A stretch of DNA of 64,000 nucleotides, taken from the NCBI GenBank assembly GCA_016794585.1, contig JAEUJM010000026.1:1444-65443 (forward strand), read 5' to 3'. How positions within the stretch are numbered: position 1 is the first letter of the stretch; every line of letters begins with the position of its first letter. The notes beneath the pieces are model-generated. The model had not been told where the DNA came from, made no database searches, and was given only the letters and a program-made list of their open reading frames with translations. Source of the DNA: Acidimicrobiales bacterium. GTDB lineage: Bacteria > Actinomycetota > Acidimicrobiia > Acidimicrobiales > DATDAH01. Below are positions 54,189-58,739 of the stretch, piece after piece. A program made the position numbers and the translations under genes.

Positions 54189-54959
54189 ATGGATCCACAG
54201 GGACGTGCAGCGATCGTCACCGGCGGCGCCGGTGGGCTCGGGGGCGCCACCGTGCGCCACCTGGCCGAGGTGGGCTACGGCGTGGTCGTGTTCGACCGCG
54301 ACGCCGAGCGGGCGGAGGCACTGGCCACCGAGCTCGGCGACCGGGCCCGGTTCGCCACCGGCGACGTGAACGACGACGACGCCGTCGCCGGGGCCATCGC
54401 CGCCGGTGGCGAGCTCGGCACCCTCTCACTGGTGGTCAACGTCGCCGGCGGCGGGGTCGGTGGGGGCCGCACGGTCGGCCGTGACGGCACCCCCCACGAC
54501 AAGGCCAGCTTCACCGGCACGATGGAGATGAACGCGTTCGGCACCTTCAACGTGTCCCGCCTGGCGGCCGCGGCCATGGCCGCCAACGAGCCCACCGAAG
54601 AGGGCGAGCGCGGCGTCATCGTCAACACCGCGTCCATCGCCGGCATGGAGGGTCAGACCGGCCAGTTGGCCTACGGCACCGCCAAGGCCGCCATCCTCGG
54701 CATGACCCTGCCCATGGCCCGTGACCTCTCGCCCCTCGGCATCCGGGTGTGCGCCATCGCCCCCGGCACCATGGGCACCCCGCTGATGTTGAGCGTCCCC
54801 GAGCAGATGCGCGAGAAGCTGGAGGAGGGCATCCAGTTCCCGAAGCGCATGGGCAAGCCCGAGGAGTTCGCCCTCCTCGTCGAGTCCATCGCCCGCAACC
54901 CCTACCTCAACGGCGAGAACATCCGCCTCGACGGCGCCCTGCGCTTCCCGCCGAAGTAG
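54189..54959 (+). CDS. SDR, 3-hydroxyacyl-CoA dehydrogenase type-2 (HSD10-like)
   Basis: ATG after GGGGGAAGGGAA. '[15 protein letters not shown]', 'NTASIAG' and 'YGTAKAA'. Confidence 0.8.
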
Positions 54960-54967
54960 GCACGGCC

Positions 54968-55798
54968 GTGCTGAAGGTCGACCACCTCGTCGCCGGCCTC
55001 GCCCTCGAGCCGACCGGCCCCGACCGCTACCGCGCCCCCGAGGTCGAGACCGGCCACGAGGTCATCTTCGGCGGCCAGTTGCTGGCCCAGTCGCTGGTGG
55101 CGGCCTCGATCGGCCACGAGGGCAAGCGGGCCAAGACCATCCACACCGTGTTCGCCCGGGGTGCGGCGCCGGGCACACCCCTGGACGTCGCGGTCGAGAC
55201 GATGCACGGGGGTCGCGCCTTCGCCAGCAGCACCGTGACCATCAGCCAGGGCGACCGCCTCTGCACCCGCTCGCTGGTGCTGCTCACCGCCGACGAGCCC
55301 GACTTCATCCACCACGCCGACCCGGCCCCGACCGTGGGCGCACCACCGGAGACCCCCGCCTCGGGTGGCCCCGACGAGTGGCAGGTGCAGATCGTCGGCG
55401 ACGTCGACATCTCGGACCCCGAGCTCACGGGCCCGGCCGAGCTCGACGTCTGGACCCGCTTCCCCGGCGCCCCCGACGACCTGCTCACCGCGCAGGCGGT
55501 GCTGGCCTTCGCCTCGGACGGGTTCCTCATCGGCACGGCCATGCGCCCCCACGCCGGCGTCGGCCAGTCCCAGGCCCACGACACCCTGGCCACGGGCGTG
55601 GTCAGCCACACCCTCACCTTCCACGAGCCCTTCCCCGCCGACGACTGGCTGCTGCTCGCGCACCGCAGCCCCCACGCCGGCCACGGGCGCAGCTACGGCC
55701 GCGCCGACGTCTTCACCCCCGCCGGCGCCCTCGTGGCGTCCTACGTCCAGGACGCCATGTTGCGCCCCATGCCCGCCAAGGACCCGGGCCGTGGCTGA
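54968..55798 (+). CDS. acyl-CoA thioesterase II (TesB-like, double hot-dog)
   Basis: 'FGGQLLAQSLVAA', 'HTLTFHEP' and 'GRADVFTPAGALVASYVQDAM'. Confidence 0.8.
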   Translation: MLKVDHLVAGLALEPTGPDRYRAPEVETGHEVIFGGQLLAQSLVAASIGHEGKRAKTIHTVFARGAAPGTPLDVAVETMHGGRAFASSTVTISQGDRLCTRSLVLLTADEPDFIHHADPAPTVGAPPETPASGGPDEWQVQIVGDVDISDPELTGPAELDVWTRFPGAPDDLLTAQAVLAFASDGFLIGTAMRPHAGVGQSQAHDTLATGVVSHTLTFHEPFPADDWLLLAHRSPHAGHGRSYGRADVFTPAGALVASYVQDAMLRPMPAKDPGRG

Positions 55799-55800
55799 CG

Positions 55801-55885
55801 GGCGCCCCACTCCGGACGTTCTGGCACCGGATTTCGGTGCCAGAACGCGCCCTCTCCTCGCAAAGGACCCGAACCGTGGCTGACG
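55801..55885. repeat. 85-bp insert: 62-nt core with 13-bp-stem hairpin plus the second copy of a 23-nt junction duplication
   Basis: Direct repeats at 55778..55800 and 55863..55885 (21/23 identical). Hairpin CGTTCTGGCACCG-gattt-CGGTGCCAGAACG at 55817..55847. Confidence 0.8.
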
Positions 55886-57054
55886 CCGTCATCGTCTCGA
55901 CCGCCCGCACCGCCATCGGCACCGCCTTCAAGGGCTCGCTGAACGACGTCGACGGGCTCGAGCTCGCCACCAAGGCGGTCGCCGAGGCGGTGGCCCGCTC
56001 GGGCATCGATCCCACCCGGGTCGACGACATCGTCCTCGGGGAGGCCCTCTACGGCGGCGGTGACCTCGCCCGCTACGCCGCCACCGAGCTGGGCATGGAC
56101 AACGTCCCCGGCGTGGCCCACAACCGCCACTGCGCCTCCGGCCTCGCCGCGGTCGCCACCGCTGCCGGCACGATCCGCTCGGACATGGACCGCATCGTGG
56201 TCGCCGGCGGCGTCCAGGCGTCGTCCACCTCGCCCCGGTCCATGCGGCGCGTGCCGGGCACCGACGACTGGGACGAGTGGATGTCGCCCACCCACCGCAA
56301 CACCCCCGAGGCCCCCAACCTCGACATGTCCATCACTGTGGGCTGGAACGCCGCGGTGGAGGCCGGCCTCACCCGGGAGGACCTCGACGCCTGGGCCCTG
56401 CGCTCGCACCAGCGGGCCGTCGCCGGCATCGACAGCGGCGCCTTCGCGGAGGAGATCTTCCCGATCGAGGTGACCCGGCGTGACGGCACCACCTCCACCT
56501 TCGAGGTCGACGAGCACCCCCGCCGGGACACCAGCGCCGAGCGCCTCGCCGGCCTGAAGGTGCTGCACCCCGAGATCGAGGGCTTCAGCATCACCGCCGG
56601 CAACGCCGCCGGCATGAACGACGGCGCCGCCGCTCTCGTGCTCGCCGCCGGCGACCTGGCCGAGGCCGAGGGCCTCGAGGCCCTCGCCACCATCCGCTCC
56701 TGGGCGTCGGTCGGCGTTGCCCCGGCCCGCACGGGGATGGCCCCCATCGACGCCATCCCGAAGGCCCTCGACCGGGCCGGCCTGACCGTCGCCGACGTCG
56801 ACCTCTTCGAGATCAACGAGGCCTTCGCCTCGGTTCCCGTCGCCACCTGCAAGGCCCTCGGCCTCGACGAGGACATCGTCAACGTCCTCGGCAGCGGCTG
56901 CAGCCTCGGCCACCCGATCGCCATGACCGGTGCCCGCATGATCATCACCATGGTCCACGAGCTGCGCCGCCGGGGTGGCGGCACCGGCGTGGCCGCCATG
57001 TGCGCCGGCGGCGGCATGGGCAGCGCCGTCGTGTTCGACGTCGCCGCGCCCTGA
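55876..57054 (+). CDS. acetyl-CoA C-acyltransferase (thiolase I/II type)
   Basis: GTG 55876. 'VIVSTARTAIGTAFKGSL', 'NRHCASGL' (Cys nucleophile) and 'GCSLGHPIAMTGAR...CAGGGMG'. Confidence 0.85.
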   Translation: MADAVIVSTARTAIGTAFKGSLNDVDGLELATKAVAEAVARSGIDPTRVDDIVLGEALYGGGDLARYAATELGMDNVPGVAHNRHCASGLAAVATAAGTIRSDMDRIVVAGGVQASSTSPRSMRRVPGTDDWDEWMSPTHRNTPEAPNLDMSITVGWNAAVEAGLTREDLDAWALRSHQRAVAGIDSGAFAEEIFPIEVTRRDGTTSTFEVDEHPRRDTSAERLAGLKVLHPEIEGFSITAGNAAGMNDGAAALVLAAGDLAEAEGLEALATIRSWASVGVAPARTGMAPIDAIPKALDRAGLTVADVDLFEINEAFASVPVATCKALGLDEDIVNVLGSGCSLGHPIAMTGARMIITMVHELRRRGGGTGVAAMCAGGGMGSAVVFDVAAP

Positions 57055-57083
57055 CCCGCCGTCCGCACCCGACACCAACGACC

Positions 57084-57128
57084 GAGCCACGACCCACCGA
57101 GCCACGACCCACAGAGCCACGACCGACC
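57084..57128. repeat. 15-bp tandem repeat x3 (GAGCCACGACCCA-NN) inside a T-depleted spacer
   Basis: Copies start at 57084, 57099 and 57114. The spacer 57055..57263 contains only 4 T in 209 nt on the + strand. Confidence 0.8.
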
Positions 57129-57263
57129 GACGAGCACCGAACCACCGAAACGGCCCGACGCAGCGGCCGAGGCTCCCGGCCCTGGCGCCACGAGCACCAC
57201 CGATCGAACCGCAGCACGCACACCGACCGACCGAACGAACGCACGAACCGAGGGGGACGCCCG

Positions 57264-58739
57264 ATGGGCTACGAGGACCGACTGCTGATCGACGGCGAGC
57301 TGGTGGCGGCCGAGGGCGGCCGCACCTTCGCCACCCTGGACCCGGCGACCGGCCAGGTCATCTGCGAGCCGGCCGACGCGTCGGTCGCCGACGCCGACCG
57401 CGCCATCGGCGCCGCCCGCCGGGCCTTCGACGACACGGACTGGGCGGGCAACCGCGAGCTGCGCCTGCGTTGCCTGCGCCAGCTCCACGAGGCCCTCGTG
57501 GCCCAGGCCGAGGAGCTGCGCCCGCTGATCGTCGCCGACGTGGGCGCCCCCGTCATGCTCACCCACGACGGGCCCCAGCAGGACACCCCGGTGGCGATGA
57601 TCAACTGGTACGCCGACCTGCTCGAGCGCTACGAGTTCACCGAGGACCTCGGCACCGCGCTCGTCCGGGGCGCCGACCACCGCCGCTGGGTCGAGCGCGA
57701 GCCGGTGGGCGTGGCCGCCGCGATCGTCCCGTACAACTACCCGCTGCAGATCACGCTGGCGAAGCTCGTCCCCGCCCTCGCCGCGGGCTGCACCGTGGTG
57801 TGCAAGGGCGCCCCGCAGACCCCGCTGGTCACGAACTTCCTGGGCCGCCTCATCGCCGAGCACACCGACATCCCCGCCGGCGTCGTCAACATGATCACCG
57901 ACTCGGGCACCGACGTCGCCGTCGCCCAGTCGCTCACCACCGACCCCCGGGTCGACATGGTCACCTTCACCGGCTCCACCCCGACCGGCCGGCGCATCAT
58001 GGCCGCGGCCAGCGCCACCGTGAAGAAGGTGTTCCTCGAGCTCGGCGGCAAGTCCGCCTTCATCGTCCTCGACGACGCCGACCTCGGCCTCTCGGCCATG
58101 CTCGCCGGCTTCACCATCTGCTCTCACGCCGGCCAGGGGTGTGCCATCACGACCCGCCTGCTCGTGCCGGCCTCGAAGTACGACGAGGCGGTCGAGCAGA
58201 CCGCGGCGATCATGGCCGGCGTCCCCTACGGCGACCCGACCGACCCGGGGATGATGATGGGCCCGCTCGTGAGCGAGGCCCAGCGCCAGAAGGTCGACGC
58301 CTACGTGCAGAGCGCGGTCGCCGAGGGCGGCCGGGTCGTGCTCGGCGGCAAGGTGCCCGAGCACCTGCCCGACGGCTTCTTCTACGAGCCCACCCTGATC
58401 GCCGGCGTCGGCCCCGACGCCAAGATCAACCAGGAGGAGGTCTTCGGGCCGGTCCTCACGGTGTTGGCGTACGACGGCGACGACGACGCCGTGGCCATCG
58501 CCAACGACTCGGTGTTCGGCCTGTCTGCCACCGTGGTCAGCAGCGACGACGACCACGCCACCGCGGTGGCCCGGCGCCTGCGCACCGGCACGGTCAGCGT
58601 CAACGGGGGCATGTGGTACGCCCCCGACTGCCCCTTCGGGGGCTACAAGCAGTCCGGCATCGGCCGGGAGATGGGGGTGGCCGGCTTCGAGGAGTACCTC
58701 GAGACCAAGACCCTCGCGATCCCGGTGGCGTCGGCGTGA
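57264..58739 (+). CDS. NAD(P)-dependent aldehyde dehydrogenase
   Basis: ATG after GAGGGGGA. 'FLELGGKSA' and 'HAGQGCAITTR' (catalytic Cys). Confidence 0.85.
   Translation: MGYEDRLLIDGELVAAEGGRTFATLDPATGQVICEPADASVADADRAIGAARRAFDDTDWAGNRELRLRCLRQLHEALVAQAEELRPLIVADVGAPVMLTHDGPQQDTPVAMINWYADLLERYEFTEDLGTALVRGADHRRWVEREPVGVAAAIVPYNYPLQITLAKLVPALAAGCTVVCKGAPQTPLVTNFLGRLIAEHTDIPAGVVNMITDSGTDVAVAQSLTTDPRVDMVTFTGSTPTGRRIMAAASATVKKVFLELGGKSAFIVLDDADLGLSAMLAGFTICSHAGQGCAITTRLLVPASKYDEAVEQTAAIMAGVPYGDPTDPGMMMGPLVSEAQRQKVDAYVQSAVAEGGRVVLGGKVPEHLPDGFFYEPTLIAGVGPDAKINQEEVFGPVLTVLAYDGDDDAVAIANDSVFGLSATVVSSDDDHATAVARRLRTGTVSVNGGMWYAPDCPFGGYKQSGIGREMGVAGFEEYLETKTLAIPVASA

Follow-up and report, generated by a model that had tools for sequence, protein, structure and literature searches.

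What has happened at the junction of two neighbouring operon genes where a strong hairpin lies between two copies of the same start/stop overlap, and can translation still pass from the first gene to the second? The junction lies in a 64,000-nucleotide stretch of an Acidimicrobiales MAG (hereafter the window, to which all coordinates refer). Upstream is a tesB-like acyl-CoA thioesterase II gene (54968..55798, plus strand; 276 aa; Pfam PF13622, PF20789 and PF02551), which ends at TGA 55796-55798 and whose product is 100% identical to P0001 ('MAG: thioesterase family protein [Acidimicrobiales bacterium]'). Downstream is a thiolase gene of the acetyl-CoA acetyltransferase family (55876..57054, plus strand; 392 aa; PF00108 and PF02803) that starts at GTG 55876-55878. 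The thiolase N-terminus MADAVIVSTART is kept in every orthologue and the gene order tesB-thiolase is the same in all relatives.

A pair of direct repeats brackets the space between the genes. It was initially described as 23 nt long (AAGGACCCGGGCCGTGGCTGACG at 55778-55800 and AAGGACCCGAACCGTGGCTGACG at 55863-55885, 21/23 identical), and 100 shuffles of the window gave no comparable repeat pair. The repeat is longer than first noted, since 39 nt with 82% identity can be aligned between 55762-55800 and 55847-55885 (both on the plus strand), with a period of 85. Copy 1 is the original junction at the tesB 3' end, with a single-copy equivalent in the related loci L009 and L209; it holds an orphan Shine-Dalgarno sequence (AAGGA, 55778-55782), an orphan GTG (55791-55793) and the working tesB stop. 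Copy 2 is a duplicated tesB 3' end that translates as KDPNRG*, and contains the working Shine-Dalgarno sequence (AAGGA, 55863-55867), the thiolase GTG and an orphan TGA (55881-55883). Copy 1 is joined to the hairpin by a left linker (55801..55816, plus strand) that is homologous across the filled alleles described below. From the orphan GTG a bridging or relay ORF of 30 codons (55791..55883, plus strand) runs to the orphan TGA, which overlaps the thiolase start. An alternative frame of 172 codons (55365-55883) is open here, and the relay ORF forms its last part. Repeats, hairpin, tesB stop, thiolase GTG and ORF had all been placed by a first-pass annotation, and each is present exactly as given there. 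That annotation spoke of a palindromic insert, which is true of the hairpin and not of the insert as a whole, since the palindromic part of the 85-nt period is 31 nt only.

The hairpin itself (55817..55847, no strand assigned) pairs perfectly over a 13-bp stem around the loop GATTT, arranged as CGTT-CTGGCACCG-GATTT-CGGTGCCAG-AACG, and folds with -26 kcal/mol (z = -6.2 compared to shuffles). Its strong folding and its position in an operon spacer are what would be expected of a terminator, attenuator or protein operator that evolved in place, with the repeats derived from a local tandem duplication. A scan of 54500-57300 found no terminator-like site, however, and the hairpin is followed by AACGCGCCC. 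The lack of a U-tract excludes an intrinsic terminator. Rfam returned no family match, only chance miRNA and snoRNA matches. Two further candidates were dropped on inspection: a sigma-54-like site (TGGCAC-N5-TTCG), of which the -12 element misfits, and an integron attC site, of which the core-site order is reversed. The host phylum is not known to have sigma-54.

Orthologous junctions were gathered by exact-protein look-ups with TesB and thiolase homologues and by a scan of the GTDB species genomes with a TesB alignment, upon which a script placed both codons of the junction, TesB stop and thiolase start, in each locus. The exact-protein look-up with the window thiolase gave no match and orthologues were reached via TesB. 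Empty sites with one GTGGCTGA overlap were found in L009, the closest GTDB genome, with nucleotide identities to the window of 91% for tesB and 94% for thiolase, and in L209/L210, two independent Logan assemblies. Their junction reads ...GCAAAGGACCC(C/G)AACC[GTGGCTGA]CGCCGTCATC. The outgroup L014 (~80% nucleotide identity) has a single ATGGCTGA overlap, and the more distant L031 and L064 have GTGA or ATGA overlaps. Single overlaps in relatives, outgroup and distant genomes thus indicate that the overlap is the ancestral state, in agreement with the earlier proposal that the element sits in an ancestral coupled tesB/thiolase junction, for which single-junction alleles had been named as the thing to look for.

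The filled sites are diverse. The window and L212/213 share a 77-nt spacer with a short, singlet palindrome. A 44-nt doublet is found in spacers of 101 nt (L005-8), 113 nt (L010, L216) and 154 nt (L003/4, L214), whereas L215 has an altered palindrome in a 112-nt spacer. Three alleles have no palindrome: L002 (89 nt, tandem junction units), L211 (389 nt) and L217-220 (44 nt). Alignment shows that L002, as the only allele, has at least two junction units in tandem; tandem duplication of the junction therefore occurs without any palindrome, and this is a point in favour of a hairpin evolved in place next to plain tandem duplication; Tandem Repeats Finder detected micro-repeats only in the spacers of L002 and L211. 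The palindrome-bearing alleles represent one insertion, because the linkers on both sides are homologous. The doublet of the L005, L010 and L003 spacers reads CTGGCACCGGAT(T/C)TCGG(G/T)G(C/T)CAGG(G/A)CACCGA(A/G)ATCCGGTGCCAG, and the 23-nt core of the window corresponds to this 44-nt doublet minus 21 nt, deleted between two GGTGCCAG repeats. In L212 the hairpin has decayed (-14 kcal/mol, z -1.4), so the hairpin itself does not appear to be clearly selected at the tesB-thiolase locus.

Neighbour joining of tesB plus thiolase, with bootstrapping, groups the two empty-site genomes in a clade (99% bootstrap) that is nested among the filled alleles, with L005 basal (99%). Judged by this tree the sampled empty sites are derived, since they are nested inside a clade of filled sites. 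The simplest and likeliest history of these empty sites is one gain, followed by precise loss when the flanking repeats recombined; alternatively, alleles may have spread by recombination. The empty junction has GCA-AAG, like the non-coding copy 2, whereas copy 1 has GCC-AAG, which fits a cross-over product, if only as weak evidence.

That the downstream repeat stems from tesB can be seen in the right flank, from element to thiolase start, which is similar to the 3' end of tesB in the window and likewise in L010 and L003 (p<=0.001 by shuffling). Translated, copy 2 gives ...AKDPNRG*, and KDPNRG* is the TesB C-terminus of the relatives P0002, P0003 and P0006. The L003 copy of ~70 nt has L003-specific bases in common with its own tesB, which points to re-duplication or gene conversion at a later time in that lineage. 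The left linker was also considered as a decayed thiolase 5' end and showed no similarity (p = 0.23-0.78). Since the ancestral thiolase Shine-Dalgarno sequence lies inside tesB, only an insertion that duplicates the junction would be expected to leave both genes intact.

The palindrome is not restricted to this locus. An exact-pattern scan of JGI metagenomes identified the family in at least 120 contigs, beside unrelated genes. Its usual form is a 44-nt doublet, CTGGCACCGGAT-N20-ATCCGGTGCCAG, with flanks CGWW and WWCG; among the matches listed, 83/136 have a length of exactly 44 nt, and four copies lie on a single 6-kb contig, L111. None of the four genes beside these clustered copies encodes a transposase. 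Family forms range from 44 to 52 nt, next to the 31-nt hairpin of the window copy, with z = -6.2 to -9.5, and some subfamilies are nested in larger inverted repeats. The 12-nt ends are conserved, while the inner stem is variable and covaries: at one inner-stem pair, 46 sequences have GC and 26 have CG, and the covariation score was reached by 0/500 shuffles. The two expectations by which the first-pass annotation could be judged, empty-site alleles and further copies of the palindrome at unrelated loci, have both been borne out. Copies mostly lie 6-60 nt 3' of stop codons and, where both neighbours could be classified (n=48 copies), 16 are found between convergent and 5 between divergent genes.

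A covariance model was built from 77 family copies, with the window copy left out. It scored the window copy at 36 bits (E=2e-8), as the sole match in 64 kb, and upon screening of 1.4 Mb of Acidimicrobiales loci detected copies in L010, L012, L013 (2), L014 (3), L015 and L214, all confined to the clade with at least 71% TesB identity. The second L013 locus carries the 44-nt doublet, and variant ends CTGGCTCCCGAT/ATCGGGAGCCAG occur in that same clade. Going by these sequences, the family belongs to uncultured, Microthrixaceae-like Acidimicrobiales. No family copy was found in PLSDB plasmids, GenBank phages or IMG/VR, a search of the literature by sequence yielded unrelated primers only, and the searched literature did not contain the family, which appears to be undescribed so far. 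A weak kinship had been suggested with elements at 1614 and 2710, by means of the 8-mer TCCGGACG. This does not stand: the 8-mer occurs 3 times where 12 are expected and is not conserved in the orthologous copies. The hairpins at 1608-1664 and 2707-2757 were rejected as kin, the family model giving 1608-1664 a score of 6.6 bits (E ~9). With the same palindrome beside so many unrelated genes, and with three family copies elsewhere in L014, of which the own tesB-thiolase junction is empty, a locus-specific hairpin evolved in place is very improbable. A dispersed palindrome that entered the junction is preferred.

We then have to ask whether the bridging ORF matters. It could be accidental, an open frame in GC-rich DNA inherited from one lucky insertion, with thiolase translated from its own duplicated Shine-Dalgarno sequence. 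Random window stretches of 28-41 codons are indeed open 67-75% of the time, and the AAGGA of copy 2 is intact, 8 nt before the GTG. The different alleles of the locus are more informative. The ORF from the orphan GTG ends on the thiolase-overlapping TGA at periods (spacer plus 8 nt) of 85 (two alleles), 97, 109, 121 and 397 nt, the last with a relay of 134 codons, and all six distinct lengths (52, 85, 97, 109, 121 and 397) are in the one frame class that is required. Where indels are not a multiple of three they are paired: L005 differs from the window by a +1 indel on the left that is matched by +2 on the right. Two alleles fall outside the class and both have independent replacement relays. 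L003 and L214 (period 162) have a two-ORF chain of GTGGCTGA, 43 codons, ATGA, 13 codons and ATGGCTGA, and in L215, which has lost the orphan GTG, a new ATG 4 nt past the tesB stop opens a 39-codon ORF in the right frame to the same TGA. Only the L217-220 allele, with its 44-nt spacer, has no relay, and in this respect it favours an accidental ORF.

A relay chain is thus present in 8/9 spacer alleles, with 1.8 expected when the spacer interior is shuffled and the frame randomised; the probability of the length classes alone is ~0.045 and those of the two replacement relays are ~0.08 and 0.015 at their own length, values that overstate independence because the alleles share ancestry. Because of the compensating indels the reading frame through the palindrome differs between alleles, and the sequence of the relay peptide is not conserved. 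This is compatible with an accidental ORF and means that only the act of translation could matter. It also bears on whether the ORF might encode a functional micropeptide, for which one could point to a Shine-Dalgarno sequence and start copied from a real gene start and to an ORF that is kept open. The peptides of the alleles are wholly different, though, their lengths vary from 30 to 134 codons and their common part is the C-terminal AKDPNRG only, a by-product of the duplication. Of all explanations considered we give a micropeptide the least credence.

Copies of the family at unrelated loci provide a further comparison. Thirteen copies lie between co-directional genes and have a start codon that overlaps or adjoins the upstream stop, with an ORF that enters the element. 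In 10/13 the stop of that ORF overlaps the downstream start, in the form of GTGA, ATGA, TGATG or GTGGCTGA, whereas frameshift controls in which 1 or 2 nt were deleted from the loop gave 3/13 and 2/13. Gene calls in these metagenomic contigs, based on GC3, are crude. Periods at the coupled loci lie between 44 and 227 nt. The same relay architecture recurs in L147, and L111 and L133 come from two genomes in which the element occupies one and the same junction, with in-frame periods of 86 and 227 nt. Short duplicated junctions are seen in L147 (9 nt), L156 (12-13 nt) and L127 (8 nt). Together with the frame class and the replacement relays, these loci argue that the bridging ORF is probably not due to chance and support, at the level of sequence, the earlier suggestion that coupling is handed over the insert; an accidental ORF we consider unlikely.

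Across the family as a whole there is no consistent long target duplication, and flanking-repeat scores are overall not above controls. Where flanking repeats are seen they measure 6-13 nt elsewhere in the family and 33-39 nt at the tesB-thiolase locus. As most copies lack a long flanking repeat, the 33-39-nt duplication is not a regular target-site duplication.

Like bacterial MITEs such as Correia, ERIC and RUP, the element is a multicopy, non-coding sequence that forms a hairpin and has both filled and empty sites, and some MITEs carry ORFs or expression signals (PMC3184786). MITEs, however, consist of terminal inverted repeats around a core and show a target duplication of fixed length, while the family described here reaches only 52 nt; without such a duplication it does not qualify as a canonical MITE. 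Rickettsia palindromic elements (RPEs), in the description given by PMC3733652, resemble it in that they are palindromes that survive in translated sequence with the frame kept open, but differ in that they sit in frame in protein genes and join the protein, whereas we find a separate mini-cistron between genes.

Structurally the family seems closest to REP/REPIN elements (PMC3116915, PMC3733652). These are likewise short (21-65 bp), GC-rich, imperfect, dispersed extragenic palindromes with a bias to gene 3' ends and convergent pairs, and their usual unit is an inverted doublet that folds into one long hairpin (PMC3116915; PMC3733652; PMC3184786). The window and L212 copies resemble decaying remnants, as do the REP singlets in the REPIN model (PMC3116915). 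A/T pairs at the first two stem positions and loops of 4-5 nt are shared with the CGTC-tagged REP families. In contrast, the family has no GTAG or CGTC tag, its flanks being C-G-W-W and W-W-C-G, and for REPs no systematic bridging by ORFs that overlap starts and stops is known. REPs are also associated with a RAYT (Y1) transposase, and among the four genes of L111 there is no transposase. The word 'Actinobacteria' is absent from the text of the 2013 REP survey.

The first-pass annotation had called the insert MIRU-like. MIRUs (Supply et al. 1997, as summarised in PMC3184786) are operon spacer units with ORFs that overlap the flanking genes, and with filled and empty sites. The likeness includes a unit of 40-100 bp between co-transcribed genes (here with a period of 85 nt), filled and empty sites in relatives and a host from the same phylum, Actinomycetota. 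It extends to a small ORF, the ends of which overlap the upstream stop (here the tesB TGA) and the downstream start (here the thiolase GTG). As they are summarised there, on the other hand, MIRUs form tandem arrays, that is minisatellites, are known from Mycobacterium with tetranucleotide direct repeats and are not 20-bp perfect hairpin doublets, whereas the window has a single unit in which Tandem Repeats Finder detects no array, in an Acidimicrobiales MAG, with a relay made of duplicated host junction plus palindrome. MIRUs are not known to carry the CTGGCACCGGAT palindrome. The term seems apt as a functional analogy, but membership of the MIRU family, compared by description, fails on tandem organisation and host.

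The explanation that in our opinion accounts best for these observations, and which we hold to be probable, is that a dispersed REP/REPIN-like palindrome entered the ancestral overlap, that the junction was duplicated and that a relay ORF restores coupling. In the ancestral state the thiolase start overlapped the tesB stop as GTGGCTGA, with the thiolase Shine-Dalgarno sequence inside tesB. Along with the insertion, a stretch of at least 33-39 nt at the 3' end of tesB would have been copied, including the Shine-Dalgarno sequence and the 8-nt start/stop overlap. The upstream copy continues to end tesB, now with an orphan Shine-Dalgarno sequence plus GTG, and the downstream copy continues to start thiolase, now with an orphan TGA. 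Since the orphan GTG is in frame with the orphan TGA, ribosomes could, on completing tesB, re-initiate, cross the hairpin and reach the thiolase start. Re-initiation after termination at the tesB TGA is envisaged at the orphan GTG, which shares its Shine-Dalgarno sequence, its spacing and its first codons with the real thiolase start. On their way the relay ribosomes would unfold the hairpin, and their termination at the thiolase GTG would re-create coupling. Translation of the spacer probably neutralises the operon polarity or termination that a strong hairpin or an untranslated C-rich spacer would cause, which may be the selective reason for keeping the relay. Later events appear to have acted via the flanking repeats, with precise loss giving the empty sites and gene conversion or re-duplication giving the L003 allele, and a 21-nt slippage deletion to have produced the singlet hairpin of the window.

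What appears new, as far as these sequences go, is that a family resembling REP/REPIN elements has relay ORFs of the MIRU type together with a junction duplication of unusual length. With it the Acidimicrobiia gain a REP/REPIN-like family, in a clade of which the bacteria are abundant in wastewater and soil. The element breaks metagenome assemblies, with many contigs ending in it, which matters for binning of this clade. The tesB-thiolase locus provides a natural series of one insertion, from ancestral overlap via insertion with junction duplication to decay, re-duplication and precise loss, and nine alleles of this locus together with about a dozen unrelated loci give statistical evidence for maintained translation across an intercistronic repeat. 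The old, untested idea from MIRUs that repeat-borne ORFs preserve coupling is thereby turned into a testable prediction. More tentatively, and as a possibility we rate well below the explanation of this one locus, the family may as a whole be adapted to operons: it would preferentially enter, or survive only at, start/stop overlaps (GTGA, ATGA, TGATG or GTGGCTGA), duplicate the junction and make its own relaying mini-cistron. If true, it would be a mobile 'translational coupler', would suggest a general rule for the tolerance of selfish hairpins in polycistronic mRNAs and would form a mechanistic link of REP/REPIN-type elements with MIRUs.

Two of the tesB-thiolase junction alleles that lack the palindrome stand out. 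The first (locus L002, 2490-2718) consists of at least two diverged tandem units, each of about 97-110 nt, comprising a junction plus spacer and opening with GTGG(C/T)TGA, and the units are chained in frame. The contig stops within the array. It is the allele that most resembles a mycobacterial interspersed repetitive unit. The second (locus L211, 2361-2749) has a spacer of 389 nt that contains 4.7 copies of the 9-nt micro-repeat CGGCGCTGA and is nevertheless a single open relay ORF of 134 codons, running from the stop of the upstream gene to the start of the downstream gene.

In more distant Acidimicrobiales the tesB-thiolase spacer measures 80-260 nt and contains a highly conserved motif, approximately GTTGCAAyGrCGTTCTCnnnnnGCGAGTATATGsTTCACrnGTGACGrCGGGCACA, which is missing from the clade of the window. 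It is found, among other loci, at L016:2545-2717, L021:10838-11049, L024:10829-10906, L029:885-1071, L037:7804-7910 and L049:10838-10948. In appearance it resembles either an RNA leader or a promoter/operator.

The window also contains a pair of long, almost identical palindromes (1608-1664 and 2707-2757) with the pattern AGGTGGAGGCGA...TCCGGAATCCGGA...TCGCCTCCACCT. Two plus-strand ORFs that follow one another (914-1588 and 1736-2701) each have one of these palindromes directly 3' of their stop codon. Membership of the dispersed CTGGCACCGGAT family was ruled out, given a score of 6.6 bits with the covariance model of that family (R1), and no copy was identified in any of the 220 fetched loci. 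They may form a terminator pair or represent another small repeat family.

Many copies of the CTGGCACCGGAT family are nested in a common larger element, which is about 90-140 nt long and has GCGGATAGGCC...GGCCTATCCGC as its outer inverted repeats; outside it the sequences differ between copies. A separate subfamily shows GAATCTCAC...GTGACC motifs 10-30 nt beyond the core. The element breaks assemblies, as shown by the many contigs that stop inside a family copy; one of these is L001, which comes from the same strain as the window. These observations concern metagenome contigs L095, L097, L106, L116, L122, L167 and L170, among others.

Some family copies may overlap coding sequence. The loop of the element at L145:1414-1457 holds the probable start codon (ATGA) of the downstream gene, by which the right arm of the palindrome would encode its first residues (MTPKSGART...). 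At L100:3654-3697 and L104:6491-6534 an ORF of 355 or 246 codons, respectively, with its start codon at the upstream stop, passes straight through the element. These two copies may be N-terminal extensions or in-frame intragenic insertions, the latter reading likening them to the in-frame intragenic copies of Rickettsia palindromic elements.
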